DNA of 64,000 nucleotides, from assembly GCA_039621445.1 (NCBI GenBank), contig CP154954.1, forward strand, positions 1,798,001 through 1,862,000, written 5' to 3'. Position numbers and translations under genes: made by a program. The DNA comes from Euglena gracilis. Its lineage: Eukaryota. Under the pieces are notes generated by a model. It was given only the letters and a program-made list of their open reading frames with translations, was not told the origin of the DNA and did no database searches. Shown one piece after another: positions 13,022 through 59,155 of this stretch. The stretch's first letter is position 1. Each line of letters starts with the position of its first letter.

Positions 13022-13125
13022 AGCTTGGGCCTGGGGCATATATAGACAATGCTAAACATATAAATACAAAATTAATAAGTCAAAATTTTCAACATAAACA
13101 ATACATATATGTATTTAGTTTTTTC

Positions 13126-35601: not shown

Positions 35602-35694
35602 TTATTTAGTAAATTGATCCATTTGTTCTAAAGCATTGAAACGATCAGAAATTAAAGGAGCTTGTTGTCTTGTTTCTGTAAAATATTCGCTTGG
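35602..35694 (-). pseudogene. psbE: 3' fragment of cytochrome b559 alpha, cut off at the junction with GC-rich repeats
   Basis: [30 protein letters not shown]; the upstream sequence is replaced by repeat DNA. Confidence 0.93.
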
Positions 35695-36274
35695 GGGCCC
35701 GAAATGGCCAAAACTGGCCAAACTGGCCCAAAACCCCAAAACGGCCGTATCTCGGGCTAGGCGGGGAGTTGGCCCAAACCGCGCATACCGATCGATCGGG
35801 CGTCCCAAAGTTGAGGAATGACGTCCTCTTCACTTTTTCGCAACTCCCCGGCGTTTTCGAGATATTTTGAATTTTTCGATTTTTTGACCCCAAAATGACC
35901 CTGAAATTTTCCTGGAAAAAAAAAACGGTAGACAAGTGTTTTGGTCGGGCCATATCTACGGACTGGCGGGGAGTTGCCAGAAACTGAAGTGCTCTGGAGA
36001 ACCTAGGGAACCTCTCCTAACCTATAGGCTATTCACTTTGGGAGCCCGGAAATCCAATCACATCGATAATCCTCGGGTGCCCCGAACTACCCAAGGGGGT
36101 GGGGGGGGGGCGGGGGGGGGGCGGGGGGGGGGGCGGGGGGGGGCGGGGGGGGCGGGGGGTCCGAACCCCCCGTCGCCGGGGTGGTAAGCTTCGCTCTTAC
36201 TCTAAAGAGATAAGAGCTCAGCGACCAGGGTGTGACGTAGAGCTGAGCTCTTTGGGGGACCATTCCGGCTCGGC

Positions 36275-36720
36275 CGGCGAAAAACGCTCATTTTCAGCTC
36301 AAAAACATGTTTTCCGGGTCCAGGAGGCTCAAAAACATGGTTTTGGGCTGAAAAAAAATTTCAATTTTTTTCGACTTTTTTGACCCGGTTTTGACCCAAA
36401 ATCAATGGGTTGGCGGCCCAAAAAGGGGCGCTGGCGGGTCGAAAAACGCTCATTTTCAGCTCAAAAACGCTTTTTCCGGGTCCGGGAGGCCAAAAAACAT
36501 GGTTTTGGGCGAAAAAATTTTTTCGATTTTTTTCGACTTTTTTGACCCAGTTTTGACCCAAAGTCAATGGGTTGGCGAACCAAAACGGGGCGCTGGCGGG
36601 TCGAAAAACGCTCATTTTCAGCTCAAAAACACTTTTTCCGGGTCCGGGAGGCCAAAAAACATGGTTTTGGGCGAAAAAAAATTTTTCGATTTTTTTCGAC
36701 TTTTTGGCCCGAAAACGGCT
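36275..36720 (+). repeat. ~160-bp tandem subrepeat with regularly spaced A/T tracts (3 copies; related copies at 57320-57900, 59220-59660 and 62500-62940)
   Basis: GAAAAACGCTCATTTTCAGCTCAAAAAC recurs at ~36279, 36441 and 36603. Confidence 0.85.
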
Positions 36721-37135: not shown

Positions 37136-37166
<31 letters not shown>

Positions 37167-37299
37167 GGGGGGGCAGGGCTGGGGGGTGTACGGGGGGCTT
37201 TTTCGGGGGGTTGGTAAGCTTCGCTCTTACTCTAAAGAGATAAGAGCTCAGCGACCAGGTTGTGACGTAGAGCTGAGCTCTTTGGGAGACCACCCCAGT

Positions 37300-37450
37300 C
37301 CGGCCCGGCGCCCGGCCGGCGGCCTGGCCGGCCCGGCCGGCGGACCGGCGGCCCGGCCCGGCGGCCCGGCCCGGCGGCCCGGCGGCCCGGCGGCCCGGCG
37401 GCCCGGCGGCCCGGCGGCCCGGCGGCCCGGCGGCCCGGCGGCCCGGCCCG
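37300..37450 (+). repeat. (GGCCCGGC)n almost pure-GC microsatellite; also at ~39975-40065, 57168-57315, 60205-60345 and 63720-63895
   Basis: Direct reading of the sequence. Confidence 0.95.
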
Positions 37451-37454
37451 ACCC

Positions 37455-39060
37455 GGATGCTCATGATGCTCATGATGGCCATCCGGGGTCATGATGGCCA
37501 TCATTGGTCATGATGGCCATCCGGGGTCACGATGGCCATCATTGGTCATGATGGCCATCCGGGGTCATGATGGCCATCATTCGTCATGATGGCCATCATT
37601 GGGCATGATGGCCATCATGGGTCATGATGGCCATCCGGGGTCATGATGGCCATCATTGGTCATGATGGCCATCCGGGGTCATGATGGCCATCATTGGTCA
37701 TGATGGCCATCCGGGGTCATGATGGACATCCGGGGTCATGATGGCCATCCGGGGTCATGATGGCCATCATTGGTCATGATGGCCATCCGGGGTCATGATG
37801 GCCATCATTGGTCATGATGGCCATCATTTGGCATGCTGGGCATCATGGGTCATGATGGCCATCCGGGGTCATGATGGCCATCATTCGTCATGATGGCCAT
37901 CATTGGGCATGATGGCCATCATTGGTCATGATGGCCATCCGGGGTCATGATGGCCATCATTGGTCATGATGGCCATCCGGGGTCATGATGGACATCCGGG
38001 GTCATGATGGACATCCGGGGTCATGATGGCCATCCGGGGTCATGATGGCCATCATTGGTCATGATGGCCATCCGGGGTCATGATGGCCATCATTCGTCAT
38101 GATGGCCATCATTGGGCATGATGGCCATCATGGGTCATGATGGCCATCCGGGGTCATGATGGCCATCATTGGTCATGATGGCCATCCGGGGTCATGATGG
38201 CCATCATTGGTCATGATGGCCATCCGGGGTCATGATGGCCATCCTGGGTCATGATGGCCATCCGGGGTCATGATGGACATCCGGGGTCATGAATGATCAT
38301 TTGTCAATGAGTCCATTGGTCATGATGGCCATCCGGAGGGTCCATGAGTGGCCAATCATGGGGGGCCCCAAATCCGGGGTCAATGATGGCCATCCGGGGA
38401 GGTCATGATGAGCCATCATTGGTCTGAGGCCATCCGGGGTCATGATGGCCATCATTGGTCATGATGGCCATCCGGGGTCATGATGGCCATCATTGGTCAT
38501 GATGGCCATCCAGGGTCATGATGGCCATCCGGGGTCATGATGGCCATCATTGGTCATGATGGCCATCCGGGGTGATGGCCATCATGGGTCATGATGGCCA
38601 TCCGGGGTCATGATGGCCATCATTGGTCATGATGGCCACCGGGGGGCATGATGGCCATCATTGGTCATGATGGCCATCCGGGGTCATGATGGCCATCCGG
38701 GGTCATGATGGCCATCCGGGGTCATGATGGCCATCATTGGTCATGATGGCCATCCGGGGTCATGATGGCCATCATTCGTCATGATGGCCATCATTGGGCA
38801 TGATGGCCATCATGGGTTATGATGGCCATCCGGGGTCATGATGGCCATCATTGGTCATGATGGCCATCCGGGGTCATGATGGCCATCATTGGTCATGATG
38901 GCCATCCGGGGTCATGATGGCCATCATTGGTCATGATGGCCATCCGGGGTCATGATGGCCATCATTGGTCATGATGGCCATCATTGGTCATGATGGCCAT
39001 CCGGGGTCATGATGGCCATCATTGGGCATGATGGCCATCATTGGGCATGATGCGCATCAT
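37455..39060 (+). repeat. 19-bp minisatellite with two main variants, CATGATGGCCATCCGGGGT and CATGATGGCCATCATTGGT
   Basis: Direct reading; contains the palindrome ATGATGGCCATCAT; error-rich patch at ~38290-38430. Confidence 0.97.
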
Positions 39061-39822
39061 GACCATGAGGGCCATGAGGGGCTGGCGGGTCGAAAAACGC
39101 CAATTTTCGGCTCGAAAACACTTTTTCCGGGTCCAGGAAGCCTAAAAACATGGTTTTGGGCAAAAAAATTTTTTTTCGATTTTTTTCGAATTTTTGGCCC
39201 GAAAACGGCTAAGTCGGACAGAGGGAAAAGTGTACAAAACGGCCATTTGGACCTGAAAACGGCCGTATCTACGGCTAGGCGGAGAGTTGCGGGGAAATCA
39301 AAATACTAGTAGATAGGGCGTTCCAAGGGCTTCAATTTAGGTCTCCGGACATTTTTTTCAACTCCCCACCATTTTGGAAATATTTTGCAAAAACTGGTTT
39401 TTTGGCCCGTTTTGGGCTCCAAATGGCAGAGTCCCCCCGTGGCGAACCCTCTAAACGGCCGTATCTCGGCCCAGGCGGGGAGTTGGCTCAAACCGCGCAT
39501 ACCGGTGGAAAGGGCGTCCCAAAGTTGTGGAATGAGGTACTCTTTACTTTTTCTCAACTCCCCGGCGTTTTCGAGATATTTTGAATTTTTCGATTTTTTG
39601 ACCCCCAAAATGACCCCCTGTTGCCGGTCCAACAAAAGTTCTTTGAAAAAAAAACGGTAGACAACTTTTTTGCTCGGGCCATATCTCCGGCCTGGCGCGG
39701 AGTTGCGGGCAAAGTGAGGGCTCTGGACAAACTAGGGACCGTCTCCTAACCTATAGGCTATTAACCTTTCGGGTCCCGAAATCAGGTCACATCGATAATC
39801 CGCGGGTGCCCGGGCCTACTCA

Positions 39823-39860
<38 letters not shown>

Positions 39861-40062
39861 GTGGGGGGGTTTTTGCGGCGGTGGTAAGCTTCGCTCTTAC
39901 TATAAAGAGATAAGAGCTCAGCGACCAGGGTGTGGTGTGACGTAGAGCTGAGCTCTTTGGGAGACCACCCCAGCCCGGCCCGGCGGCCCGGCCCGGCTGG
40001 CGGCCCGGCGGCCCGGCCCGGCCGGCGGCCGGCGGCCCGGCGGCCCGGCCCGGCCGGCGGCC

Positions 40063-40560: not shown

Positions 40561-42330
40561 CAGGATGCGCCTCATGACCATGAGGGCCATGAGCGGCTGG
40601 GGGGTCGAAAAACGCCAATTTTCGGCTCGAAAACACTTTTTCCGGGTCCAGGAAGCAAAAAAACATGGTTTTGGGCACAAAAAATTTTTTCGATTTTTTT
40701 CGACTTTTTGCCCCGAAAACGGCTAAGTCGGATAGAGGGAAAAGTGTACAAAACGGCCATTTGGACCTGAAAACGGCCGTATCTAGGGCCGGGCGGGGAG
40801 TTGCGGGGAAATCAAAATACCAGTAGATAGGGCGTTCCAAGGGCTCCAAATTAGGTCTCCGGACATTTTTTTCAACTCCCCACCATTTTGGAGATATTTT
40901 GCAAAAACTGGTTTTTGGGCCCATTTTGGGCTCCAAATGGCAGAGTCCCCCCCTGGCGAAACCCCAAAACGGCCATATCTCGGCCCAGGCGGGGAGTTGG
41001 CCCAAACCGCGCATACCGGTGGATAGGGCGTCCCAAAGTTGTGGAATGAGGTACTCTTTACTTTTTCTCAACTCCCCGCCGTTTTCGAGATATTTTGAAT
41101 TTTTCGATTTTTTGACCCCAAAATGACCCATTTTTGGCAGAGTCCCCCCCCCTGGCGAAACCACAAAACGGCCATATCTCGGCCCAGGCGGGGAGTTGGC
41201 CCAAACCGCGCATACCGGTGGACAGGGCGTCCCAAAGTTGTGGAATGAGGTACTCTTTAGTTTTTCTCAACTCCCCGGCGTTTTCGAGATATTTTGAATT
41301 TTTCGATTTTTTGACCCCAAAAATGACCCCCTGTTGCCGGTCCAACAAACTTTCTTTGGAAAAAAACAGTAGACAACTTTTTTGCTCGGGCCAGATCTCC
41401 GGCCTGGCGCGGAGTTGCGGGCAACCTAAGGGCTCTGGACAAACTAGGGACCGTCTCCTAACCTATAGGCTATTAACCTTTCGGGTCCCGAAATCAGGTC
41501 ACATCGATAATCCGCGGGTGCCCGGGCCTACTCAGGGGGGGGGGGGGGGGGGGGGGCGGGGGCGGGGGGGGGGGGTCAGGGGGGGTTTGGGGGGGGTGGT
41601 AAGCTTCGCTCTTACTCTAAAGAGATAAGAGCTCAGCGACCAGGGTGTGACGTAGAGCTGAGCTCTTTGGTAGGCCACTGCGGCCCGACCCGGCCGGCTA
41701 GCGGCCCGGCGGCCCGGCGGCCCTGTAGCACAGGTGGTGATGGGGTTAAAATGATATGTTGAAGAATTCAGGGAGCCCTTGTGGAGAAATGAAGAGCATT
41801 GGAGTTATGTAGTATGGTGTTTGCACATGCAAGTACAATTAATTGTGTGTGTGACTTTTTGGTCTTAAAAAGGGGGAAAGAGGGAGTCATTATTATTCGG
41901 GACGCCTCCGAACAGTTGATGCGGCCCAGGCGTGGTTACCCCGATTTCGCACCGCTCCCATCGTCGTTGCCCCTGAAGTGGGGTGACAATGACGGGATGT
42001 CATCGGCTTGGGTATCCCCGGCTATGGGTACCGGGGACCCGCACGGTTGCGGGCGGTTACCTACCTTGCTATCTTGCCGTGGGCAAGCGGTTAGAATTTG
42101 AGGTTTCGCCCTGGGTTGCTGGTGAGGGTTTAGTCGGTGTTTGGTTGTTAGGGTTAGTTAGTGTTAGGTGTGTTGGTGTTAGTTTGCCAGTTAGGAGAGT
42201 GGTCATGGGAGAGGGGATTGGGGAGAGGAGTTTTTTCGAAAGGGGATGTGGCTTTTCCCGTCAGCATGGGGACCGACGTTTGCCATTGGAAAAAGTGGAT
42301 GGTTAATGATGATTAGAGTTAGAGGTACTT

Positions 42331-42358
42331 ACACTTCCGGAGTGTCTATTTGTTTTCG
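42331..42358 (+). other. Degenerate Euglena spliced-leader exon sequence (relic SL)
   Basis: ACTTCCGGAGTGTCTATTTGTTTTCG (42333-42358) against the recalled E. gracilis SL ACTTTCTGAGTGTCTATTTTTTTTCG: 23/26 identical. Confidence 0.7.
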
Positions 42359-42689
42359 TCTGTGCGCAATGCATTGCAGAAGGAAGCATTTTCATTGACA
42401 AGATTCTCATTCAGAGCATTCTCATTGACACATGAACACAGGAAGCTGATTTGTCTTTTGGCTCTTAGGATGCAGCCTAAATTATCGCCTTGGCGAAGTA
42501 ACTTCGGATGGACGCTGGAATGTCATCGTTGTGCGGCATGTGTGCTTGGAGGCAGAAATTCTGAGATGTGTTGTATTTTACTTACTAATATGTGTGTTGC
42601 TGCTTGTGTGTCTCGCCCATTATCAACGTGTACTGCAATGTGGTTCCTTTGTGCAGCTCATGTACTGGCTCGTTGCATGCTTGCACTCG

Positions 42690-45600
42690 CGAAGTGCACA
42701 TTTGCATTTTCACGGTGCACATCGTGCACTCGCCTGGTGCACATCGTGCACTCGTGTGTAGGAAATGAAACGATGGCCACATAGGTGCACATGTTGGGGT
42801 AATGAAACGGTGGCCTCATAGTGGGAAATAAAAGAACCATTTGCATTTTCATGGTGCACATTTGCATTTTCACGGTGCACATCGTGCACTCGCTTGGTGC
42901 ACATCGTGCACTCATGGGTAGGCATTCATGGTGCACATCGTGCACTCGCCTGGTGCACATCGTGCACTCATGGGCAGGCACTGGAAATCTGGCCATGGTG
43001 CAGCTCCTTCACTCCTGGTGCACATCGTGCACTCATGGGTAGGCATTGGACATCTGGCCACGGGCATGACATTTTCTTTCTCCTGGTGCAGCTCCTGCAC
43101 TCGCCTGGTACACATCGTGCACTCATGTTGGGGTAATGAAACGGTGGCCTCGTAGTTGGAAAATATAAGAACCATTTGCATTTTCATGGTGCACATCGTG
43201 CACTCGCTTGGTGCACATCGTGCACTCATGGGTAGGCATTGGAAATCTGGCCACGGGCATGACATTTTCTTTCTCCTTGTGCAGCTCCTGCACTCGCCTG
43301 GTGCACATCGTGCACTCATGTTGGGGTAATGAAACGGTGGCCTCATAGTGGGAAATAAAAGAACCATTTGCATTTTCATGGTGCACATCGTGCACTCGCC
43401 TGGTGCACATCGTGCACTCATGGGTAGGCACTGGAAATCTGGCCATGGTGCAGCTCCTTCGCTCCTGGTGCACATCGTGCACTCATGGGTGGGCATTGGA
43501 CTTCTGGCCACGGGCATGACATTTCCTTTCTCTTGGTGCAGCTCCTGCACTCGCCTGGTGCACATCGTGCACTCACGTGTGGGAAACAAAATGATGGCCT
43601 CACAGTGGGAAATAAAAGAAGCAGTTGCATTTTCATGGTGCACATCGTGCACTCGCTTGGTGCACATCGTGCACTCATGGGTAGGCACTGGAAATCTGGC
43701 CATGGTGCAGCTCCTTCACTCCTGGTGCACATCGTGCACTCATGGGTAGACATTGGACATCTGGCCACGGGCATGCCATTTCCTTTCTCCTGGTGCAGCT
43801 CCTGCACTCGCCTGGTGCACATCGTGCACTCATGGGTAGGCACTGGAAATCTGGCCATGGTGCTGCTCCTTCGCTCTTGGTGCACATCGTGCACTCATGG
43901 GTGGGCATTGGACATCTGGCCACGGGCATGACATTTCCTTTCTCCTGGTGCAGCTCCTGCACTCGCCTGGTGCACATCGTGCACTCATGGGTTGGCACTG
44001 GAAATCTGGCCATGGTGCAGCTCCTTCGCTCCTGGTGCACATCGTGCACTCATGGGTAGGCATTGGAAATCTGGCCACGGGCATGACATTTCCTTTCTCC
44101 TGGTGCAGCTCCTGCACTCGCCTGGTGCACATCGTGCACTCATGTTGGGGTAATGAAACGGTGGCCTCATAGTGGGAAATAAAAGAAACATTTGCATTTT
44201 CATGGTGCACATCGTGCACTCGCCTGGTGCACATCGTGCACTCATGGGTAGGCACTGGAAATCTGGCCATGGTGCAGCTCCTTCGCTCCTGGTGCACATC
44301 GTGCACTCATGGGTGGGCATTGGACATCTGGCCACGGGCATGACATTTCCTTTCTCTTTGTGCAGCTCCTGCACTCGCCTGGTGCACATCGTGCACTCAC
44401 GTGTGGGAAACAAAATGATGGCCTCACAGTGGGAAATAAAAGAAGCAGTTGCATTTTCATGGTGCACATCGTGCACTCGCTTGGTGCACATCGTGCACTC
44501 ATGGGTAGGCACTGGAAATCTGGCCATGGTGCAGCTCCTTCACTCCTGGTGCACATCGTGCACTCATGGGTAGGCATTGGACATCTGGCCACGGGCATGA
44601 CATTTCCTTTCTCCTGGTGCAGCTCCTGCACTCGCCTGGTGCACATCGTGCACTCATGGGTAGGCACTGGAAATCTGGCCATGGTGCAGCTCCTTCGCTC
44701 TTGGTGCACATCGTGCAGTCATGGGTGGGCATTGGACATCTGGCCACGGGCATGACATTTCCTTTCTCCTGGTGCAGCTCCTGCACTCGCCTGGTGCACA
44801 TCGTGCACTCATGGGTAGGCACTGGAAATCTGGCCATGGTGCAGCTCCTTCGCTCCTGGTGCACATCGTGCACTCATGGGTAGGCACTGGAAATCTGGCC
44901 ATGGTGCAGCTCCTTGGCTCCTGGTGCACATCGTGCACTCATGGGTGGGCATTGGACATCTGGCCACGGGCATGACATTTCCTTTCTCCTGGTGCAGCTC
45001 CTGCACTCGCCTGGTGCACATCGTGCACTCATGTTGGGGTAATGAAACGGTGGCCTCATATTGGAAATAAAAGAACCATTTGCATTTTCATGGTGCACAT
45101 CGTGCACTCGCTTGGTGCACATCGTGCACTCATGGGTAGGCATTGGAAATCTGGCCACGGGCATGACATTTCCTTTCTCCTGGTGCAGCTCCTGCACTCG
45201 CCTGGTGCACATCGTGCACTCATGTTGGGGTAATGAAACGGTGGCCTCATAGTGGGAAATAAAAGAAACGTTTGCATATTCATGGTGCACATCGTGCACT
45301 CGCCTGGTGCACATCGTGCACTCATGGGTAGGCACTGGAAATCTGGCCATGGTGCAGCTCCTTCGCTCCTGGTGCACATCGTGCACTCATGGGTGGGCAT
45401 TGGACATCTGGCCACGGGCATGACATTTCCTTTCTCTTGGTGCAGCTCCTGCACTCGCCTGGTGCACATCGTGCACTCACGTGTGGGAAACAAATGATGG
45501 CCTCACAGTGGGAAATAAAAGAAGCAGTTGCATTTTCATGGTGCACATCGTGCACTCGCCTGGTGCACATCGTGCACTCATGGGTAGGCACTGGAAATCT

Positions 45601-46380
45601 GGTCATGGTGCAGCTCCTTCGCTCCTGGTGCACATCGTGCACTCATGGGTGGGCATTGGACATCTGGCCACGGGGGAGACATTTCCTTTCTCCTGGTGCA
45701 GCTGCTTCACTCGCTTGGTGCACATCGTGCACTCACGCGTGGGAAACAAAATGATGGCCTCACAGTGGGAAATTCAAGAACCATTTGCATTTTCATGGTG
45801 CACATCGTGCACTCGGTTGGTGCACATCGTGCACTCATGGGTAGGCACTGGAAATCAGGCCAGGGGCATGACGTTTCCTTTCTCCTGGTGCAGCTGGTGC
45901 ACTCGCCTGGTGCACATCGTGCACTCATGGGTAGGCACTGGAAATCTGGCCATGGTGCAGCTCCTTCGCTCCTGGTGCACATCGTGCACTCATGGGTGGG
46001 CATTGGACATCTGGCCACGGGCATGACATTTCCTTTCTCATGGTGCAGCTCCTGCACTCGCCTGGTGCACATCGTGCACTCATGTTGGGGTAATGAAACG
46101 GTGGCCTCACAGTGGGAAATTGAAGAACCATTTGTATTTTCATGGTGCACATCGTGCACTCGCCTGGTGCACATCGTGCACTCATGGGTAGGCACTGGAA
46201 ATCTGGCCATGGTGCAGCTCCTTCGCTCCTGGTGCACATCGTGCACTCATGGGTGGGCATTGGACATCTGGCCACGGGCATGACATTTCCTTTCTCTGGT
46301 GCAGCTCCTGCACTCGCCTGGTGCACATCGTGCACTCACGTGTGGGAAACAAAATGATGGTCTCAACAGTGCACTCAGTG
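42690..46380 (+). repeat. Modular tandem array of the palindromic core GGTGCACATCGTGCACTC joined by about five recurring linker types; ~824 bp higher-order repeat
   Basis: Dozens of cores. Near-identical spurious ORFs start at 43348 and 44172, and at 43742 and 44566 (offset 824). The array decays towards ~46680. Confidence 0.95.
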
Positions 46381-46776
46381 GGACAATGGCCAGGGGGGGG
46401 GGGCAACGCAGAATGCCATCTCCATAATCCTGGGACAACTGATGATCTGTTCGGTGTACGAAGTGCACTCCTGGTCCGGGTGATGGCCACATGGAGGGGG
46501 AACAACCCAGAATGACATGTCCATTATCCTGGGGCAAAGGGTGCACAATGGTGCACTCTTGGTGCACAACGGTGCACTCAGTGGGACGATGGTCACATGT
46601 GGGGACAACGCAGAATGCCGTGTCCATATTCCTGGGACAACCGCTTATCTGTGCGGTGCACGATGTGCACTCCTAATGCGGGTGATGGCCATGGATAAAA
46701 ACGGTGCAACCCCTACGCTCCTTTGACGAGATCTTTCTGTGGCACATCTTCACTCTGAAAAACCAGATGACTTGTG

Positions 46777-47800
46777 TCACTCAGTTGTTTTTCTCCTCTT
46801 GCTTTGCCGAGCAAGTAGTGGTTCCGGAGGAACTTGTGTAAGGACATCGTAATGTGGTGGATTTCGTTGATAAATCACCGAAAGGATTGGCCCTGCATTC
46901 CCGTATTGTGTGCACAGTCGCCAATGTTCAGCTGCCTCCAAAAATACGTTAATCCTAATGCCGAGCATGTGACATATCAAGACTATCTCGGGCTCTTCAG
47001 CCCAATGGTTGTGGTTTAATAGGGACGTGAGATACTGCTCACGGTGGTGACCAATCCCCATTAGAACATCCCCAACAGGAATGTCAAATCCTGGCACTGT
47101 GGAATTCCATTGGGCCGCAATGAAAGTAGCAAGTCTTTGGCGTAATTGTATTGCATCCCTGGGCTCATTTGAACCCAGAACGCAATAAAAAAAGCAAGAA
47201 CCATCCCCTTTTGCTTTCCAAATTTTCGCAGCCGTCTTTGGAATGCAATCTGATACAGTCATCAACTCAGAACAATCCATGGAAGCATCCATTTGCTCCC
47301 TGGTGCTTTGACGGACGGCATCCATTTGCTCCCTTGTATTTTGATCTCGTAGCGTGTTTTGAACATTTAGTTCCACAACAGCGCTCGCGTCAACATGATC
47401 GGATTCGGTCACTCGAGCATCTATATTGGCGGGATGGTTTGAACTTTTGCAATGTGGTTCATGCAGTTTCCGATGTGCATCCTTCTTCCATGTGCGCCCA
47501 CATCCCATGCGGCACGCATATAAAGCAGAATGTTGTGTTATTGTTGCACAACTTTTCTCGTGATCGTTCCGTGCAGTGTTTGAAGGGTACCTCTGTCCGC
47601 ATCCTTTTCTACACTGAAATTTCAAAACATTTTCCCCACCAGGCTTCAAAACTTTGTCTGCTCCCTTCCCATCATATGATATCCCCACCTGCAGATACAA
47701 GTTTTGCAAATGCTTGAAAGTGAGTGGCATGGACTTGTGCTGGCACATATAATTCACCAGCTGCGCACGGGGAAGTAAGGGAACGTAATCTTCGCACAAT
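46777..47800 (-). CDS. Zinc finger (2x C2HC-like) plus OTU cysteine protease; separate ORF or frameshifted C-terminus of Rep/Hel
   Basis: CRKGCGQRYPSNTARNDHEKSC, CRMGCGRTWKKDAHRKLHEPHC; OTU motifs KGDGSCFFYCV, WAEEPEI, PHYDVL; basic tail KRRK. Confidence 0.85.
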
Positions 47801-50800
47801 ACTGTAAAGGTCATCATTACTCCTGAGTTGAATGAGGCGTATGTCCTCTGTGCGTCTGACCCGACTGATACCAACATAGAACGCATTATATGATAGAGTG
47901 GGAGTGATCGGATGGTCCACACACAAAATAATTTTGTCCAATGTTCGACATTGGACACCATGAAAAGTTGTTCCAAACAACAAATTAAAAGGATGTGCCA
48001 TCACTGTCACAATCCCCCTTTTTTTGGACGAAAAATGTATGTAACGCGCGATGTTAACCTCCCGTGGGATGGAAAACAAAGGAATAATTCTTCCACCCTC
48101 CTCTGTGGTGCCGAGAGCAGCATTGTCGGCGATATCCCCTTGAACAATAACATTTATCACCCAAGGGGGGTATTCCAACGTTACAATTTCCCCAGGGCGT
48201 GCACGGAAAATTCTTTCCAACGTCTCCATTGGCTCACTTTCATTGAGCACAATGGAATGGACGGAAGCCCTTGTTCCATTTGACAACCCACGCTCCGGGC
48301 GTATGTTGTATGTCAAAGTGATAGGGCATCCTTGCACAACATGTGCCCACAAGTCCTTCACTTTGGCATACATAACATTTTGAACACCCTCACCAATGCA
48401 CGCGGCAAACTCATTTTTCAATGGCAACTTCCATTTTATTATGGGTTTTCTCGTGCTTTCGGCAAATAAACGAACCATGACTTCATTCACCATATGTACA
48501 CATTTTCGGTCTGTGGATACAATGAGTGCATTTGACCACGACCTGTCCCTATGAAAATCGGAAGGTGATATCATTCTCAACGACGACAGAAATTTGTCTC
48601 GTGCGAGTAGCCCTGGAAGAGAGAAATTTCGGTAAGCTGCCACTGCAGCCATGTGCTCGGGATCCTGAGCCCTATGTTGGGTATTGAGGCTGATCACTTT
48701 GAAGGATTGAAACAATGCATATCCTTCTAATGCATCTATCATTGCTACAGATTGTGTTTTAGGTTTGATGTATAGGTCTCCCCCACCAACTGGGGGGATT
48801 TGAACAAAGTCACCCATCAGAACGACACACATTCCCCCAAAGGGTTCACCGTTGTTGTCGCACACTTTGCGCATGCGTTTGTCAATGTCGCGCAACATTT
48901 TGCAAGTCAACATGGACATTTCGTCGATGAGAAGCACTTTGCAACCTGAAAATTGTGATCGTAAACGATACAATTTTTCCCTTCCTCCATCCTGGACAGT
49001 GTCATTGGCACCGTCGTCTCCATATACACTCAACCCCACCCCATGGTGACACACGTCGACCCACGATGCAGATTGCATGCAGCAACCCCAGAAGGGGCCA
49101 TAAAACGCAAAATGTTTGTCCCAAATGCTGTGGACAGTCGGTTATGCAATTCCCTTGCCATTGTGCTTTTTCCTGTTCCGGGTCCCGCATGTACGACGAC
49201 ACGAGGTGCAGTCGGTTTGCATGATGGATCTGCAATCAAAACGAATTGTACATACTCCGAAATCATTTTTATAAATTTTCTTGTTCCTCAGTCAAAACCA
49301 CGCTGCTCTGCACGCACAATCGTACCGTGGCTGGGTTTGTTCCCACCCCGGAGGCAAGTTGTAGGGGCTGAAAATCATCGCTTTTCAACGCTGCGTACGT
49401 CTTATTCAATGTCTCCGATAAAGGAGCCTTGACATCAAATGGGTTTGCACTATTAATATGCATTGCAAAGCACTCGTTGACATTTGGAGACATTGTCTGC
49501 TGCCCGTTTTCCTCCAAATGCCTGGAGAAAATTTTCAACAGTACGTTCACCAAATTTGGTTCCGCCTGCTCGCATTCTTTCAAACCATCGCTGCTGTACT
49601 TCTGCATGAAGATTGTGAAGGGTGTCGTGAAAATGCTGAATTTTCACGGAATGCCTGATTTCTTGCACGGCACTTCTTTCTGCCACAGCATTGAAACCTA
49701 TGTCGAGTGGGTGTGGCATGCCCCATTTCTTTTGGTTTCTGTTTCTGATAATGGCTGAAAGAATGGAATTTTTTTGTGCAACGGATGTTAGGTTTTTCAA
49801 CCTTTGAACATACGCAAAGCGCGCACGATCTAAATATCGTGCATCTTTTTTGCCTGCACACTCCTCCCATTGGCAAAAATCATCCCATGCTATTTTGGGT
49901 GGATTTTCAAAACTCCACGGAACTATGAAAGTCATCACGTATTGTGCCCAAATGTTTTGGACGCGCGATGGTCCATCCCCTCCTGGCCACTTGGGCAACT
50001 TTTTCCCCGACAAAACTGGGCATCGGAATTGATTCCCCATTTTTTGTACCCATGTTCCAGCCAACAAATGCATATCGTGCAAGTGAAAAGTTGTTCCTCT
50101 TGGACAACCTTCGGGTGGTTCACCATCGACGCTTTCATCATTGGCAGCACTTTGCAACGAAAAATGGGCAGCGTACTCCAGTGCACTTATGCTTTCCAAT
50201 TCACCTCCCCGTAAAGCATAATTGTATGCTGCAGGGATACCAACGATGATTGATTTTCCTTCATGCACAACGGAAACCAGTTCCGTTGCACCTCCCTCTT
50301 CCACAAAAGGGTCATCCAAATTGTCAATCCGACGCGAATGCATTAAGGTAGTAGTTGCATCCAACGTTCTCCTGTCCTTCCCCTTTCCCTTTTGTCCAGC
50401 CAAATGTTGTTGCCCAACTTTTCGTTGTAAACACTCATTTGCTAGATCGTCGTTGGACTCTCCGTCGCCATGCCCGATCTCCGATTCCTCCTGTTCATCC
50501 TCATTGTCATCCTCATCATCGTCATTGCCAATCCTGATTTCCTCGTCAGAATCATCTTCGTCATCACTTTGGCCATGTCCATCAACATCACATGGAAATC
50601 CCCCCTCTCCCCCTAAGTCTGCAGTGCAACAGACTGCTTCCTTATCCTTTGAACTCGTTTTTGAACACGAAATTTCGTTTTCATTTGACTTTCTGTCCCC
50701 TATTTCTGCCATAGCAGGGAAAAGAGCGGGCAAACTAGAGATGTAATGCCAAGGATTCACAATGACAAATTTATGGGATGCATGCCACGATGGATAACCT

Positions 50801-53800
50801 AATACTGCCGTGGCTGCCATTTGCGCTCCCACCTCAACCTTCCGATCCATGGCATTAACAACGCGTTTCAAAAGGAGAGCATAATCTTCCTTCTCTTGCA
50901 TTTTGTGTCCAAGCCGTTCCTCAACTTCACCCAGGACATGACGCAAGACCGATAAAACCCCACCCAATTTCACAGGGTTTTTTGTGCAATATCCAACGAC
51001 ATAATTTGCCAATGCCAGCACCCCCACCTCCCCTCCTAGAATTTGCGCATTTGAGTTGCAGGCCAGCACAAAAGATACAAGTTTGCTGCAATCGACGACG
51101 CGACCATCACATTTGTGTGGTCGCTTGGTTTCCCATACCACTAAGTGGCTATCAACTGTGGGATCCTGTGCAATAGTTGCCATGTGTTCCAATGGAATCT
51201 CCTGTAAATCATGCCCACCTGTTTCCATTTTACGTGCAACAAAAAGGTGGGGCCGTGTTTCGCCTAAGTGGGACCCGCATGCACGAGGCATGCCAAAACG
51301 GCAGCCAAACCGTCCGGCAGGTGGTTTGCCGCAGCTCGGTATGAAACAGCGGTGTATTTGCAGGGCCCCCATGACTTCCTCCGCAAATTCCATGATGGAC
51401 GCATATGCTTGTTCAACATTTTCAGGCAATGGAGGCCTTCGTCCTTTTTCTTCCAACATTCTGGGTGCTGGACAATGCTCTCTTTGCCTTTCCTCCCATT
51501 TTTCATGCACATCATTGGAGAGACTAGTGCAAACTTGGGAATCTAGAGCTCTTGCCGCGACCTTTATTGCTTCTTTATCGTGAACAATCGCATCCAGTAT
51601 GTGTGGTGGAATTCCCCCCCAGAACACCCCGTGCCCATGCAATGAACCTCGGGATTGAGCCTCGGTGCAAATGACTGCAGCTATTGGTGTCCCATGCATG
51701 CCAACTTTTCTGGACACATAGGTTCGTGTTTTCGGGTAGTCTGTGCATCTGGCACCCCTAATAACACTTTCATGAAGGCAAGCACTTGCCTCTCAAATAT
51801 CCGAGCGGCAGCCACGGGGTTGTTCGATATTGCGGAAAATTTTGCCGACGTTTCCGGCATTTCGAGTGACAGTTTTACCTTTCCCAAACATAAGGCGAGT
51901 GTCAACACATTATCCACCTCATTTGGTGCAAATGTGAAGAAAACGGATGGCATCCCGAACCACGCAAGCATTGCCTGCATTTTCCCCAGAGTGGCATATC
52001 TTTCGGAAGACCCAAATGGCACAATACTGTGACAAGTGCGGATGATGGGCAAAAACTCCATCAACAGTTTGGTAGCCAACAAACCCGTTGGATTCTTGAT
52101 TGCCTCTTCCAAGCGTTCTGTAAAATCAACGCTATTCACTGCATTTTCAAAACGACTTAAAAATGAAGGAGTCGCTTTGAGGCGACGACCTATGCTCCGG
52201 AGAGCCATGTGTCTTAACTTTTGATTGAAAATGAGAAGCACAAAATCCCGGCTCTCGGCAAACCTGTGGTCATGTTGATACAAAAGATGACGCACTGTCT
52301 CGGTATTCAACCCACTGTTTCTTTCAATCCCTTGATATGTCATGAACAAAGTTGGAAATGATCCCATCAGCAGATGGGCATTACGTGTGAACTCATTGAC
52401 AGGGGTTTCATCCCGATGAACAAACGTCGTTGCACGATTTTTACAAATGTCCTGAATGGATTGGACCAATACTGGGAGGTCATTACTTGCACAACCCACG
52501 ATGGTGCCATCCGCAACCAAAACCGCATCATCGATGCCATTTGTTTCTGCTTCATTGGAAGGGTTTGCAATATCCGCGGTCATGCGGGCATCACATACTA
52601 TTGCCTCACTTTCTTCCACAATTTCAACCCTTTCAAAAATAGTGGAAGAGAAAGCATGCACCTCAGAGGGTTCCTGTTGCAAAATTTCAATGGTTGCGTA
52701 CAATGGGTTAACGTGCTTCAGCACGACAAGCCATTGCATCAACTTTTCCCAATTGACCGTGAAAATTCGTTCGATTTTGGCCCTGCAGCGTTCAGTTGCC
52801 ATTACTTGATCCCATTGGGACTTTGTCCCCACAAATAAAACTTTGGTTTCTTTCAACCGAGCGACATTTGGAAGGGCCAAAATGGTTTGTTCCAACCCTT
52901 CATGGGGAAAAGAGATTGTGTGTCCCTTAATACCCCACCCCACACCATGACCACCCCCTATGGCCACCAGTTTAACTATTGTGATGCAGGTCCTGACAGG
53001 GGCAATGAGGCGTTCCTCCAGCGCTGTCAATTCAGGCAACCCTGACCTATTCCCAAAATGTTTTCCACTGGCAACAGATCGTGGTGGTCGAATTGGGCTT
53101 GGCCCAATTAGTGATTTCTGGCAGTGTTTGCAAACAGTCACATCTCCGGCTTTAGGGACACCATGCAACCAATACAAATTCACCCCATGCTGTACAATGC
53201 AAAGATGGCAATGGTACTGGGGAGGAATTTTGGCCAACCACTCTTGTTCGACCTCATTCAATTGCAGCACGTGCAAAGAATGCAGTGAAACAGGTTTCAC
53301 CTCAATGAAGTCTTCGACACCACACACTTGACAAATGTTTATGTTGTCAAGGATGCCAACACTTTCTTCCCATTCTTTCGCCATGAAAACAACCCTTTGC
53401 GGTGTTAGTTCTTCATTCTCCAACTTTTGCAAAACTTCATCCCTCTGGGTACTTGGAAATAGACATGGGCTTGCAGGCCACACATCCCACCCAGTTGAAT
53501 CCCACCATCCCCGTATGACCGCTGGTAACGATTTCCATCCACCCAGCGATCGAAATTCTGTTTCATTTGGGGGCTCGACACTCAGCAATTGTGCCAGTTG
53601 TTCATCACGCAATTTCAACGGGGGGCAATTTAACTGCGATGAAGCATGTAACTGTTCCCACACAAAGCTTCTCTGACCTCCGAATGTTGCTCCCAAAACC
53701 CCGTATGTTGCACTCTGTGCACCGTGCTCGGCACCTTCAATGGCATGCTCCATACCCTCCACCCCACTGCACCTGCCCTCCACGCCACGTGCAGCACTTT

Positions 53801-55004
53801 GTGCACCATGTTCTGCGCCTCGCATACCTCCCACGGCACCTTCGGCGGCATGCACGACACCCCCCACCCCACTGCACCCCCCCTCCACGCCACGTGCGGC
53901 ACCTTGTGCACCATGTTCTGCGCCTCGCATTCCACCGGCGGCACCTTCAATGGCATTTACCATACCCTGCACCCCACTGCACCCCCCCTCCACGCCACGT
54001 GCGGCACTTTGTGCACCATGTTCTGCACCTTGCAGTCCTCCCACGGCACCTTCAACAGCATGCACCATACCCTGAACCCCATAGGTGCCTGTGTCCATGC
54101 TCTCCTCATAGAACAAGCGCCTTCGGGACAAACTCCGAGTTGGTGCCTTGGCACAACCTAGAACGTGGCGCCGCATGTGTTGCACTCTTGAAAATTCTTC
54201 CTTGCAATAAGCGCACACGCGTGACGGGGTTCTTGGGACAGCAGAGTTACACCTTTCAAAATGGCGGTTAAAATTATTTCGATCACCAAATTGATCATTG
54301 CACTTGCTGCATGTGAATAATTTAGGACTGTGAACATTGGACGTGTCCGTGGAATGGTGGTCACGCATATGCCTTAGCAAATGCTGATTTGATGAAAATG
54401 TTTTTTCACATTGTGGACATTGTGGTCTATCACTCTCAATAGCTTGCACAACACATTCCCCACGAGGCGTGTCTTGGGCCAGCATAGTATCACCATCCCT
54501 TTCGGTGCTACCCGCGTGCACATTTCGAATATGCCGTAACAAATTTGGGCGTGTTGAAAACGTTTTCTTGCAGTACTTGCATTCCTGCCCTCTACAAATG
54601 CTTTCTTGCATTAAATTAGAACCACCAAGGCCAAATGCAATGCCTTCTTGCGATGAACTGTCACATTTTTGCACACGACTGTTAACACTATGAACACGTG
54701 TTTCATTGGTTGCATCCCAAGAGCCAAAAGAACTTTCATTTCGCATGGCCCGTTCCATTTCAATGTCTCCCCAACATTCAAAAGCATCAGGCAGAGGTCT
54801 GTCTTTTGCCAACATTGAGGGGTTGGAACAAGGCGCATTTTGCACACGTTGTTGAAACACTTTCATCAATGCAAACAAAAAACACCCCAAAGCAATGAAA
54901 AGAACGATAACATGCCGCAAAGTTGGCGATGAAACAAACTTTTCTTCCTCGGGATTCATTGAATGCATGAAAGAAACCAAAAAAAAGTTTGGAAAAACCT
55001 GCAC
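47672..55004 (-). CDS. Helitron-family Rep/Helicase: C2H2 zinc fingers, 35-aa repeats, Helitron N-terminal region, HUH Rep and Pif1 helicase; split by about four frameshifts (~51710, ~49600, ~49275, ~49050)
   Basis: HDHRFAESRDFVLLIFNQ; FGMPSVFFTFAP; NPVAAARIF; EAQSRGSLHGHGVFW; QIHRC...CRFGMP; YVVGYCTK; LTEEQ; AGPGTGKS; APSGVAA; LLIDEMSM; FGGMCVVLMGDFVQIPPV; GLSNGT; FYVGISRVR. Confidence 0.93.
53700..54080 (-). repeat. In-frame 105-bp (35-aa) coding tandem repeat, about 3.5 copies
   Basis: GAEHGAQSAARGVEGGCSGVQGMVNAIEGAAGGMR-like units; CCTCCACGCCACGTGC at ~53777, 53882 and 53987. Confidence 0.9.
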
Positions 55005-55056
55005 AGAGAAGAGAAGAGAGCAATAAGGGATTCAATGTCTTTTCGCGCCTTTATGA

Positions 55057-55445
55057 AATACACAAGCCTATATCCTCAATTCAAAATGCATCAGCCTAAA
55101 TCCCCAAAAGGAAAGCCAGCCCCTAATTGGAAATCGACCGTCTCCTAATTGATTGACATAACCCCCGTATTAGACAGTCCCCTCCCCCTAATTGCAACAC
55201 CACCGTTAACGCACAGTACCCCCTCCTAATTTGACAAACCTTTCACCAAATACACAAGCCTGTATCCTCAATTCAAAATGCATCAGCCTAAATCCCCCAA
55301 CGGAAAGCCACCCCTAATTGGAATTCCACTGTCTCCTAATTGATTGACATAACCCCCGTATTTGACATTCCCCCCCCCCTAATTGCAACACCACGCTCAA
55401 TGCACAGTGGCCCCTCGTAATTTGGCAACCTCCCCCCCCAATTGA
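55057..55445 (+). repeat. ~190-bp direct repeat (2 copies) just upstream of the Rep/Hel ORF
   Basis: AAATACACAAGCCT.TATCCTCAATTCAAAATGCATCAGCCTAAATCCCC at ~55057 and ~55248. Confidence 0.9.
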
Positions 55446-58109
55446 GAAGTGGAGACCAGAAGAGTGGTGATGAAACATGGTTTTAGGCCGAACAAAAACC
55501 CAAAAAAAATTTGATTTGTACTTTCTGACCGAAAAATGACTCGAAACTTTTCGGTTTCCGGCCCAGAACGAGGGGCTAGCAAATCAAAAAAAAAAACACT
55601 CATCGGCCCATAAACACTTTTGCCGGGGGAGGGAGGACCAAAAAACATGCATTTGTGAAAAAACATTTATTTTCGGCTCCAAAACAGTGTTTCCGGGAGG
55701 GCAAAAAAAACACGAATTCGGGCCAAAAAAAATCTCCAATTTTTTCGATTTTTTGACCCAGTTTTGAGCCGAAGTAAATGCGTTGGCGGCCTGAAACGGG
55801 ATCTTTGACCCTGGAACTTTGACCCTTGAAAAAGACAGAATTGACCATACAATGCCGTGAATACCGTGCAGCCCATGAAATATCATGCTTTGGTCTAAGT
55901 GCAATGGGTCACAAATGACAACACCCTACATTGACAAATGTTTCTTTTCCTCCTGGTGCGGGGCTAAATCAAGGGTTGGCATGCCTAACGGGGTCTCTTG
56001 AAGAACAGGGTGTGGTTGAGGTGCGCTTTGCCAAATACTGTATGACCTTCAAGAGGATTGTAAAAAATCTGGGTGTAAACCACCGTTCTCCTTCGCTTTG
56101 TATCAAAATTCAGCTGTGTTCCATCATATTATGTCCTAAAACGCCACCACAATGACGTTATTCCTGATGAAAACCTTTTGAAAAATATGCTTAAAGTAAC
56201 TGAGAATCAAATTGTTTGTTGCTATTGCCAAAAAGGTAATTCATATCACCCCTCCAACCACATGCATGAACGGGCCACATGGGTCACATTCGTGACAATT
56301 TGCGCGAAATTTGCGAAAAGTATTTGCTTATACAACCGCACCTCACATACCACTTTTTCCTTGCAGTCGGGTACGTTTGGGGGATCACCCCCCACGTTGT
56401 TATCCTTGGAAATTCTGTTGGGAGCTTTGTCAAGAAACAGTGACGATGATGGCGACGGTGATGATGAAAACGATGAAAGGAAAAGAAAATATTTCACATA
56501 CATCCAAAGAAGCATGTTCAAAACATCGTGGTGTGAGATTTATACGCAATCCATGCCGAATTTGATCCTGCATGCAACATGAGTGCTGATGGTGGTGGTA
56601 TCATTTGGCAGTGTGCTCGTCGATCATATCACACTCGCGGCAGTGAATACGGCCCAAAATCAGCAAACAACGCCCGTGTTTGCGATGAAGCGGGGGGGGG
56701 GGAGGGGTCGCCATGGGGTGCGGGACGAATTCAAAACAGATAGGTGTTCGTAGTAGGGGTTTTCTTAAGCCGTAGCGTACTCAATCGTGGTGGGGGTCTA
56801 GTCATGCAACAGCTCAAAGCAAACCACCAACTGAAAGTGGGGCTGGGAGCCCACGGCCCCCCTCCGGGGGGATCGAGTGACATACACTTGGGTCATGTCT
56901 AGCTGGCAAATTGGGCTGCGCAGTTCACGTATCCCTTCATTTTTCCCCTCATTACAGCTTCCTCCTTCACAGCCCCCCCAGCATTGACCCAGCTCCATGC
57001 ATCACAGTGTCGAAAATTAAAAAAAATGTTGGACAATGCTCGTTTTCATCAGTTTTTGTGGGTCCGGGAGGCCAAAAAACATCGTTTTGGGCAAAAAAAT
57101 TTTTTCGAATTTTTTCAACTTTTTTGACCGGTTCTGACCCTGAGCTCTTTGGGAGACCACCCCAGTCCGGCCCGGCGGCCCGGCCCGGTCCGGCCGGCGG
57201 CCCGGCGGCCCCGGCCGGCGGCCCGGCGGCCCGGCGGCCCGGCCCGGCCGGCGGCGCGGCGGCCCGGCGGCCCGGCCCGGCCGGCGGCGCGGCGGCCCGG
57301 CGGCCCGGCGGCCCATTTTGGGCTCAAAAACAGTTGTTCTGGGTCCGGGACGCAAAAAAAACATCGTTTTGGGGCAGAAAAAAGTTTTCGATTGTTCTCG
57401 ACTTTTTTGACCCGGTTTTGACTCAAAATCAATGGGTTGGCGGCCCAAAACGGCGCGCCGGCGGGTCGAAAAACGTTCATTTTTGGCTCGAAAACACTTT
57501 TTTTGGGTCCGGGAGGTCAAAAATCATGGTTTTGGGCAAAAAAATTTTTTCGATTTTTTCGAATTTTTCGAACAGATTTTGATCCAAAGTATATGGCTCG
57601 GCTGCACAAAATGGGGAGTTGGAGGGTCGAAAAACGCTCGTTTTAGGCAAAAAAACAGTTTTTCCGGGTCCGGGAGGCCAAACAACATCGTTTCGGGCAA
57701 AAAAAATTTTTCGATTTTTTTCGACTTTTTTGACCCGGTTTTGACCCAAAGTCAATGGGTCGGCGGCCCAAAACGGGGCGCCGGCGGGTCGAAAAACGTT
57801 CATTTTTGGCTCGAAAACACTTTTTTTGGGTCCGGGAGGTCAAAAATCATGGTTTTGGGCAAAAAAAAAATTTCCGATTTTTTTTGACTTTTTGACCCCA
57901 AAATGGCTAAGTCCACCGGCCAGGGGGGGGGGCATCCTGGGGGGGGGAGGGGGGGGGGTCCGGGTCGGAAAAATTTTTTTTCGCTCTAAAAACCTTTTTT
58001 TGATGTTCTGAAATGAAAAAAAGTGTTTTTTTTTTAAATAATTTTTTCAAAATTTTGGGTCCCGACCTGCCACCCGACCCCCCCTCGCCCAGCCGCCCTG
58101 AAGGCGCGC

Positions 58110-58870
58110 GATGGGGCCCCCGAACACCCAAAAACTGGCCAAAATCGCACAACCAGACCCCGGGAACCCCAAAAAACGGTCAAAAACCCCCCCTAAACCT
58201 AATGATTGACCCCCTGGTTTGGGTTCCAACTCCTCGTCTAGCCCGAGATACGGCCAATTTACGGTTTCGGGCCCTGAACGGGCCAGAACTGGCAAAACTG
58301 GCCCAAAACCCCCAAAACGGCCATATCTCGGGCTAGGCGGGGAGTTGTCCCAAACCGCGCATACCGATGGATAGGGCGTTCCAAGGTCGTCAAATAAGGT
58401 CGCCGTCACTTTTCCTCAACTCCGCAGCGTTTTCGAGATATTTTGAATTTTTCGATTTTTTGACCCCAGCCCGGCAGCCCTCGAACCCCTGCAGGGGTCC
58501 CCGAATACCCAAAAATGGCCCAAAATCGTACAACCAGACCCCGGGAACCCCAAAAAACGGTCAAAACCCCCCCCTAAACCTAATGATTGACCCCCTGGTT
58601 TGGGTTCCAACTCCCCGTCTAGCCCGAGATACGGTCAATTTACGGTTTCGGGCCCCGAACGGGCCCGAAATGGCCAAAACTGGCCCAACTGGCCCAAAAC
58701 CCCAAAACGGCCGTATCTCGGGCTAGGCGGGGAGTTGGCCCAAACCGCGCATACCGATCGATCGGGCGTCCCAAAGTTGTGGAACGAGGTCCTCTTCAAT
58801 TTTTCGCAACTCCCCGGCGTTTTCGAGATATTTTGAAATTATCGATTTTTTGACCCCAAAATGACCCTGC
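58110..58870 (+). repeat. ~380-bp direct repeat (2 copies)
   Basis: CAACCAGACCCCGGGAACCCCAAAAAACGGTCAAAA...CTAAACCTAATGATTGACCCCCTGG at ~58150 and ~58531. Confidence 0.88.
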
Positions 58871-59155
58871 AATTTCCCCGGAAAAAAAAACGGTACAACT
58901 TTTTAGCTCGGGCCATATCTCCGGACTGGCGGAGAGTTGCGGGTAACCGAAGGGCTCCGGAGGTACTAGGGAACCTCTCCTAACCTATAGGCTATTCACT
59001 TTGGGGGCCACAAAATCCAGTCACATCGATAATCCCGGGGTTTCACTACCTACCCAGGGGGGGCGGGGGGGGGGGGGGGGGGGCGGCGGGGGGGGGCGGG
59101 GGGGTCCGACCCCCCCGTCGCCGGGGTGGTAAGCTTCGCTCTTACTCTAAAGAGA

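Follow-up and report, generated by a model that had tools for sequence, protein, structure and literature searches.

Canonical Helitrons (HLE1), as understood from the Helraiser model, combine an HUH Y2 Rep with a PIF1 helicase, transpose by a rolling-circle route with a circle in which the two ends are joined, and use a 3' hairpin as the termination signal. Their ends are 5'-TC and 3'-CTRR, the hairpin lies 10-12 nt from the 3' end, and the Rep motif is RG-L-P-HxH. Here we examine a 64,000-nt stretch of Euglena gracilis DNA (assembly GCA_039621445.1, contig CP154954.1, positions 1,798,001 to 1,862,000 of the forward strand; the window), in which a module of 65-66 nt, with 36188-36252 as its first copy, recurs among repeats. 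We think that this module probably joins successive copies of a rolling-circle transposon head to tail, a transposon that would be of Helitron2 type (HLE2, lacking an endonuclease) and lie in what is probably Euglena nuclear DNA. Most of the units are non-coding derivatives, and one of 17.5 kb carries a defective reversed gene ('HLE2-reverse'). The element is most likely a new family of an already described kind.

The closest described systems belong to the Helitron2/Helentron group, whose elements have inverted repeats of about 8-16 nt at their two ends and insert between T and T with no duplication of the target. In Helitron2, whose 5' end begins with T and whose target is TTTT/T, the 5' asymmetric terminal inverted repeat (ATIR) lies 0-2 bp from the end and forms a 5' hairpin, and the 3'-ATIR is found immediately upstream of a hairpin (PMC3627910). 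[quoted passage not shown] The distance from the 3' repeat to the end is 20-30 nt in Helitron2 (PMC3627910), 38-60 nt in the mite and about 20-51 nt in Fusarium (PMC5148889). DINE-1/HINE elements, which are non-autonomous derivatives of Helentrons, carry subterminal inverted repeats (subTIRs) of 12-15 bp; at a distance of 3-22 bp from the 5' subTIR stands an inverted repeat (IR) whose 5' side is nested in that subTIR, and after it come a microsatellite, central repeats and, on the 3' side, a short stem-loop (PMC4067079). Cg_HINE of the Pacific oyster is built in the same terms: its subTIR measures 11-12 bp and the complementary IR 7-12 bp, and these are followed by a microsatellite, a tandem array, and a 3' subTIR with a palindrome (Vojvoda Zeljko et al. 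2020, PMC7492417). Tandem or joined-end copies are on record for the HLE2 group (PMC4067079, PMC5148889).

The module and the units it bounds

The original prediction, made from the letters of the window, described three competing inverted repeats around a small palindrome and likened them to a Helentron 3'-end/5'-end joint. All three arms and the mini-palindrome CTCT-AA-AGAG are present where it placed them (Table 1), and a repeat finder returned both pairings that it proposed. The middle arm, arm 2, pairs upstream with arm 1 over 12 nt at 83% (10/12), with 11 nt between the two, or downstream with arm 3 over 11 nt at 100% (11/11), with 19 nt between. As arm 2 is common to both, the two hairpins are mutually exclusive. 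The idea of competing hairpins is not new, the same competition being found in Bao and Jurka 2013 (PMC3627910).

Folds were computed as single-stranded DNA, with 200 shuffles per fold. The arm 2/arm 3 hairpin reached -10.6 kcal/mol (z = -4.06, 0/200 shuffles as good), and this downstream pairing is clearly beyond chance. It is unbroken in 6/8 copies, the other two having one mismatch and one G-T. Arm 1, the mini-palindrome and arm 2 fold together into one imperfect 14-bp hairpin (36188-36222) of -6.9 kcal/mol (z = -1.84, 10/200 shuffles as good). The three-arm arrangement did not occur in 100 dinucleotide shuffles of 35695-64000, in which perfect inverted repeats of 11 bp within 30 nt averaged 0.41 per shuffle. 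The real sequence of this region has 411 inverted pairs and 388 triples, total counts without positional breakdown that are not module-specific evidence because they are mostly attributed to a palindromic 19-bp satellite and a GC microsatellite.

Since the module folds better than shuffles, it might be read as a small structured RNA. However, neither a search of the whole window at gathering score nor one of 35700-37500 at E <= 1 gave any Rfam family on the module, and the copies show no covariation. The RNA-gene reading was dropped on the Rfam result. That the module is such an RNA, or that the arrangement is an artefact of a repeat-rich long-read assembly, a case to which we return below, is very improbable.

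The window holds eight full copies of the module, all on the plus strand, starting at 36188, 37218, 39888, 41603, 59133, 60136, 62413 and 63636. The 35-nt left part occurs seven times with at most one mismatch, where 100 shuffles led us to expect none. Variation within the spacer takes the form of a 5-nt duplication in the copy at 39888 and substitutions in those at 37218 and 60136. Among seven copies, pairwise identity is 98.7% in the module against 89.6% in the conserved head that precedes it, and none of 310 head windows of 65 columns is as conserved as the module. The heads fall into two subtypes that are 83-85% identical, and the modules of these subtypes differ at 0-1 of 66 nt; this is the conservation test that withstands the non-independence of the copies. 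The module is the best-conserved part of the repeat unit. Such conservation suggests that the module is under constraint, or that only copies with intact modules have spread.

Measured from one arm 2 to the next, the units are 1030, 2670, 1715, 17530, 1003, 2277 and 1223 bp long, the short units thus spanning 1.0-2.7 kb. A conserved head of ~450 bp and then a G run of ~36-65 nt stand before each module. The prediction's remark that a GC microsatellite follows in several units holds for five of the eight full copies, where (CCGGCGGC)n leads into the 19-bp satellite, and for the solo arm at 57139; after the other three full copies comes a 162-bp tandem array instead. The short units would be non-coding, and the seven ORFs (open reading frames) of at least 150 aa situated mainly outside the ORF-bearing region contained no Pfam domain. 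The ORF-bearing unit has this module at its borders just as the short units do.

Several features of these repeats can be recorded alongside. The G runs of all eight units (36095-36159, 37138-37186, 39823-39869, 41535-41597, 59057-59104, 60080-60118, 62356-62410 and 63559-63631) measure ~36-65 nt, have single C or T breaks and lie ~25-35 nt upstream of arm 1. They could form G-quadruplexes on the plus strand. Their lengths differ between copies, to which sequencing error may contribute. The 19-bp satellite TCATGATGGCCATCATGGG is nearly palindromic and occupies 37470-39061, 40062-40537, 60363-61596 and 63907-63997. Every head contains a conserved inverted pair, GGCGGGGAGTTGG ... CAACTCCCCGGCG.

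The order of parts in a unit (subTIR, IR, microsatellite, central tandem repeats, 3' subTIR, palindrome) is that of a HINE. As in DINE-1/HINE elements, the IR is nested in the 5' subTIR, a short stem-loop closes the unit, the ends are shared with a coding partner, the copies cluster, and the partner's ORF is reversed, as it is in Helentron-Da-40. The partner here differs in having no AP endonuclease and in its Rep motif, RG-S-L-HxH as against RG-S-P-HxH, and the unit differs in its ~450-bp conserved 3' region with a G run. The subTIR of the window equals none of the 15 subTIRs listed in Table S2 of Thomas et al. (PMC4067079). Cg_HINE offers a likeness of another kind: these too are non-coding HLE2 derivatives, in which satellite-like arrays are flanked on the left by subTIR, IR and microsatellite and on the right by subTIR and palindrome, and related flanks enclose unrelated repeats, much as the units here contain either 19-bp or 162-bp repeats. 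The oyster elements, however, are dispersed and have defined ends, whereas the units of the window lie head to tail at one locus only, and the spacing of the IR is 19 nt here against 1-12 nt in the oyster.

Helitron2 itself is matched in its short asymmetric terminal inverted repeats, in a 5' repeat at the very end with T as its first base and within a 5' hairpin, in a 3' repeat just before a small hairpin, in the lack of an endonuclease and in an ORF that is sometimes reversed. The differences are that the 3' repeat here lies at most 11-12 nt from the presumed terminus rather than 20-30 nt, that the 3' hairpin is of 4 bp, and that the ends are seen joined only. From canonical Helitrons the distance is greater, as the joint reads ...AAAGAG-A-TAAGAG..., with neither 5'-TC nor 3'-CTRR, the Rep motif is RG-S-L and not RG-L-P-HxH, and DUF6570 is present.

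Table 1. Coordinates of the module, the repeat units and the Rep/helicase gene in the window
Feature	Position	Strand	Remark
Arm 1, GCTTCGCTCTTA	36188..36199	+	Proposed 3' inverted repeat (asymmetric/subterminal) that closes upstream unit on the right; 10/12 complementary to arm 2
Mini-palindrome CTCT-AA-AGAG	36200..36209	+	Proposed 3' stem-loop after right inverted repeat
Arm 2, TAAGAGCTCAGC	36211..36222	+	Proposed 5' inverted repeat, first base T, common to both competing pairings
19-nt spacer, loop of 5' hairpin	36223..36241		Most variable part of module
Arm 3, GCTGAGCTCTT	36242..36252	+	Inverted partner of arm 2 (11/11), 5' hairpin
Module copy 2	37218..37282	+	Followed by (CCGGCGGC)n and 19-bp satellite
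Module copy 3	39888..39957	+	C>A in mini-palindrome; spacer with 5-nt duplication
Module copy 4	41603..41667	+	Left border of ORF-bearing unit
Module copy 5	59133..59197	+	Right border of ORF-bearing unit
Module copy 6, degenerate	60136..60200	+	8-10 differences from other copies, none compensatory
Module copy 7	62413..62477	+	G>T in arm 2 breaks one pair in each pairing
Module copy 8	63636..63700	+	
Solo arm 3 (CCTGAGCTCTT)	57139..57149	+	162-bp-type repeat on left; usual downstream sequence and GC microsatellite on right
Conserved head (3' region of unit)	35732..36094	+	Precedes each module, in two subtypes of 83-85% identity
G run, 65 nt, interrupted by C	36095..36159	+	~30 nt 5' of arm 1
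162-bp tandem repeats, 2.6 copies	36278..36705	+	Central repeats of short '162-type' unit 36211-37240
(CCGGCGGC)n microsatellite	37316..37447	+	3' of 5' hairpin, unit starting at 37241
19-bp satellite TCATGATGGCCATCATGGG, 83.9 copies	37470..39061	+	Central repeats of '19-type' unit
17.5-kb ORF-bearing unit	41626..59155	+	Arm 2 of copy 4 to mini-palindrome of copy 5
Broken Rep/helicase gene	46777..55004	-	Four ORF pieces; frames -3/-2/-2/-1/-2

The long unit and its Rep/helicase gene

The gene of the long unit encodes, by Pfam, C2H2 zinc fingers, DUF6570, Helitron_like_N, a PIF1 helicase and an OTU domain. DUF6570 (PF20209) matched residues 640-776 of a 1107-aa ORF at E = 7.1e-17, Helitron_like_N at E = 8.8e-14 and PIF1 at E = 5.4e-14, the N-terminal piece of PIF1 falling under the cut-off. 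The HUH motif is TEAQSRGSLHGH (RGSLHGH) and the tyrosine motif YVVGYCTKN. Homology to two relatives continues without loss of residues through the frame changes and the stop at 49453.

The Rep is HUH-type and fused to a PIF1-type helicase, and DUF6570, an HLE2-specific marker as against HLE1 in HELIANO (Li et al. 2024, PMC11417382), lies upstream of it. The presumed ends agree with HLE2 as well, with short inverted repeats at both ends of the unit (10/12), a 5' hairpin, and a stem-loop after the right repeat. In the motif ExQxRG-x-P-HxH the diagnostic residue at x is S, not L, according to Thomas et al. 2014 (PMC4067079); the Rep of the window (RG-S-L-HGH) has this S, followed by L where the published motif has P. 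A full HMMER scan for relatives gave 583 matches at E <= 0.001 and a word-index homolog search for longer proteins gave three, by which the closest database proteins are merely 37-43% identical over long stretches. In the 62 relatives whose motif could be read, the two residues are S-L in 30, A-L in 17, T-L in 9 and S-P in 2, with four others once each and L-P in none. Of 22 long relatives, 19 have DUF6570 and one has OTU.

An AP endonuclease domain (Exo_endo_phos) was found neither in the four large ORFs nor in 15 further ORFs, nor in any of the 22 long relatives. The 15 were drawn from 105 stop-to-stop ORFs of at least 70 aa in 41700-57150, and include all those on the minus strand at 46185-46672, downstream of the helicase. 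Because no such domain was found, we use the label Helitron2/HLE2 and not Helentron in the strict sense, in which an AP endonuclease follows the helicase; nor does the element have the marks of a canonical Helitron (HLE1). The original prediction was therefore largely right in kind and wrong in label: the layout of a HINE/DINE-1/Helitron2 joint and an HLE2-type Rep in the array support the joint, and the strict Helentron name does not stand. A search of solved-structure sequences with the Rep-bearing ORF gave no match at E <= 0.01.

The prediction had itself warned that the ORF runs antisense to the proposed ends, and it does, but this is a documented exception in the HLE2 group. Reversed ORFs are described in Helitron-2_CRe, Helitron-1_DR, Helentron-Da-40, FoHeli4/5 and 'HLE2-reverse' (PMC3627910, PMC4067079, PMC5148889, PMC11417382). 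In 'HLE2-reverse' elements the stem-loop lies, relative to the ORF, upstream of the left repeat (PMC11417382, PMC5148889), as it does in the window. The FoHeli elements of Fusarium oxysporum (Chellapan et al. 2016, PMC5148889) share this arrangement, and are also HLE2 elements with a DUF6570-bearing RepHel, joined-end (circle-type) products and occasional tandem copies. They differ in that their ends were confirmed with empty sites, in an inverted repeat 38-51 nt away from the 3' end, and in having no internal satellites.

The gene region appears to belong with the short units. It has no inverted repeats of its own, as one exact inverted 11-mer was found between its flanks where 0.78 were expected, and degenerate 162-bp-type sequence lies within the long unit at ~55440-55800 and 57038-57138. 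This bears on the possibility that the module is a motif of a host satellite or higher-order repeat, such as a protein-binding or replication palindrome, in which a Helitron-like gene merely landed or was trapped. The region is indeed built of satellites, all copies of the module lie inside two arrays that are segmental duplicates, the window shows no evidence of mobility, the gene copy is dead, and homogenisation by gene conversion could explain the conservation. However, an element-by-element match to the HLE2/HINE layout beside an HLE2-type Rep gene would then be coincidence, the gene region has no ends of its own and includes 162-bp-type sequence related to the short units, and conversion would not single out 66 nt beside a head that is 15% diverged. 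We consider a host satellite quite unlikely.

The remainder of the long unit is also repetitive. A 3.5-kb nested tandem array (42838-46366; periods 22, 65, 90, 155, 257 and ~412 bp), rich in GGTGCACATCGTGCACTC, separates the left module from the 3' end of the Rep/helicase gene. The N-terminal part of the gene contains a 105-bp tandem repeat in 3.4 copies (53729-54081, residues ~300-420 of the minus-strand ORF), which encodes GVQGMVHAxEGAxGG-type segments between the zinc fingers and DUF6570. A 191-bp tandem duplication (55056-55428) precedes the start of the ORF, and beyond it are two degenerate 162-bp-type copies (55440-55800). Upstream of the unit's head, 58113-58468 and 58494-58858 form a duplication of ~360 bp at 88.5% identity, within which CCAACTCCCCGTCTAGCCCGAGATACGG (~58609-58636) is inverted relative to CCGTATCTCGGGCTAGGCGGGGAGTTGG (~58711-58738).

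Direction of the proposed joint and a possible mechanism

On the plus strand, the left 22-23 nt of the module (GCTTCGCTCTTA and the 4-bp palindrome) would be the right terminal sequence of one unit, and the remaining 42 nt (TAAGAGCTCAGC folding onto GCTGAGCTCTT) the left terminal sequence of the next. From its 5' hairpin this next unit would run through the GC microsatellite, the central repeats of 19 bp or 162 bp and the ~450-bp conserved 3' region to its G run. We prefer this strand because only the plus-strand reading reproduces the HINE order and gives both hairpins.

The core of arm 1, mini-palindrome and arm 2 is nearly symmetric, reading inverted repeat, palindrome, inverted repeat on both strands, so that the join could fall on either side of the mini-palindrome or, on the minus strand, in the spacer. 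One version of such a joint places the join within the 19-nt spacer on the minus strand, with arms 3 and 2 as the terminal repeats, arm 1 as a 10/12 hairpin partner and the Rep in sense; another joins the units on the other side of the mini-palindrome (36199|36200). Besides putting the ORF in sense, the minus-strand version would use the stronger, 11/11 pair as termini, and it would put at the join the variable positions and the 5-nt duplication of the copy at 39888, though variation is expected in a hairpin loop anyway. In the solo copy at 57139 the break falls precisely on the first base of arm 3, but on the plus strand this is a copy that has kept its 3' side and lost its 5' side, which is a common truncation of Helitron2 (PMC3627910). 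The solo arm is itself either a 5'-truncated unit or a deletion joint. On the minus strand, moreover, the microsatellite and central repeats would come at the 3' side, contrary to the HINEs described (PMC4067079, PMC7492417), and the spacer has no palindrome for a 3' hairpin, remaining unpaired in 4/4 folds. It is unlikely that the joint is to be read on the other strand or joined elsewhere.

The original prediction took the module for the Rep nick/termination site. A mechanism in which the plus-strand joint would act in this way can be sketched along the lines of the model published for Helitron2 and of a rolling-circle scheme of Helraiser type. The HUH Rep may nick the transferred strand beside the 5' hairpin, with the PIF1 helicase unwinding. 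The 3' inverted repeat, once single-stranded, would compete with arm 3 for arm 2. This competition would open the 5' hairpin and bring the two ends together for a second cleavage and joining, and the product would be a circle whose joint is the module. Arrays may then arise from continued rolling on joined circles, from missed termination, or from later unequal crossing-over.

A bolder form of this scheme, which we regard as rather unlikely, makes the module a compact, pre-joined HLE2 origin, the hairpin switch a termination decision, and the satellite arrays the products of continued rolling. An oligonucleotide of ~66 nt would then hold all the cis signals, because the 11-nt mini-palindrome alone separates the terminal repeats.

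A number of results weigh against the plus-strand joint between transposon copies. The arrays at 35695-41720 and 58661-64000 are segmental duplicates of ~91-93% identity, so the eight copies are four pairs and are not independent, and the copy at 60136 is as diverged as its flanks. Compensatory changes, which the original prediction had looked to as a check, were found at 0/14 and 0/11 pairs in the eight near-identical copies of the window; nine changes fall at paired positions, of which eight break a pair and one turns G-C into G-T. As the eight copies are too alike, this covariation test is uninformative. The arm 1/arm 2 pairing is merely 10/12 and weak alone (z = -1.84). The 3' palindrome, which the prediction already noted as short, is indeed of 4 bp, is not significant alone and is altered in 2/8 copies, and the 3' inverted repeat lies at most 11-12 nt from the presumed 3' terminus, closer than the ~20-60 nt upstream that is looked for in this group. 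Within the window there is neither a free end next to unique DNA nor an empty site, and 8/8 full copies are joined. The long unit is composite, since a solo arm 3 and microsatellite sit inside it at 57139. Its Rep/helicase is antisense, broken, and tied to the module by position at one locus only, and unless indel errors in the assembly are the cause, this copy of the gene is interrupted by three or more frameshifts and an in-frame stop.

Genomic setting and significance

From position 1 to ~35690 the window is AT-rich, with a GC content of ~22%, and its genes include those for tRNAs and ribosomal proteins, split ATP-synthase exons and a group II intron maturase fragment. Its uL2 (32245-33078) shows 100% identity to that of the Euglena gracilis chloroplast, and this neighbouring plastid DNA suggests E. 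gracilis as the host. The genes of this part (26632-27549 and neighbours) are in short exons, with pieces of the ATP-synthase alpha/beta family at 10348-11127 and 12194-13039; the group II intron maturase match is weak. Short split exons and a group II maturase are typical of the intron-rich plastid genomes of euglenids. The plastid part stops within a psbE fragment at ~35691, and from 35695 on, where the module is located, GC rises to ~45-57% (2-kb windows) and nearly all of the DNA is repeats.

At the junction (~35686-35695), 35.7 kb of plastid DNA therefore abuts GC-rich nuclear-type repeats. The join cuts psbE, which retains the last 27 of the 39 positions of the Pfam profile for its lumenal part. 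Either plastid DNA was inserted into the nuclear genome very recently, or the assembly is chimeric here. A possibly chimeric join inside psbE and long, error-prone G runs of variable length are what might be expected were the arrangement of modules an assembly artefact. The module recurs, however, in units that are 15% different and have large indels, unlike collapsed or duplicated reads.

A search of the literature on Euglena and Helitrons found no description of such elements. The text of the HELIANO survey (PMC11417382) makes no mention of euglenids or Discoba, the Diplonema literature yielded one paper that merely lists Helitron-like ORFs, and a preprint on extrachromosomal circular DNA of Euglena held nothing relevant on rolling-circle or satellite circles. 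Asymmetric inverted repeats, competing hairpins, satellites borne by HINEs, tandem copies and a reversed ORF are all already in print. In the literature examined we met no experiment on cleavage of ends by an HLE2 Rep.

The probable joint between Helitron2-type copies adds to the Helitron2/Helentron group a family in euglenids with defined candidate ends, and provides a concrete account of some of this genome's satellite-rich DNA. With both ends within 66 nt, it also offers a short substrate for the recognition and cutting of DNA by an HLE2 Rep. If the module is in addition a compact origin, the family would generate satellite DNA in the repeat-rich genome of Euglena, and would supply a minimal substrate for the still unstudied biochemistry of the HLE2 Rep.

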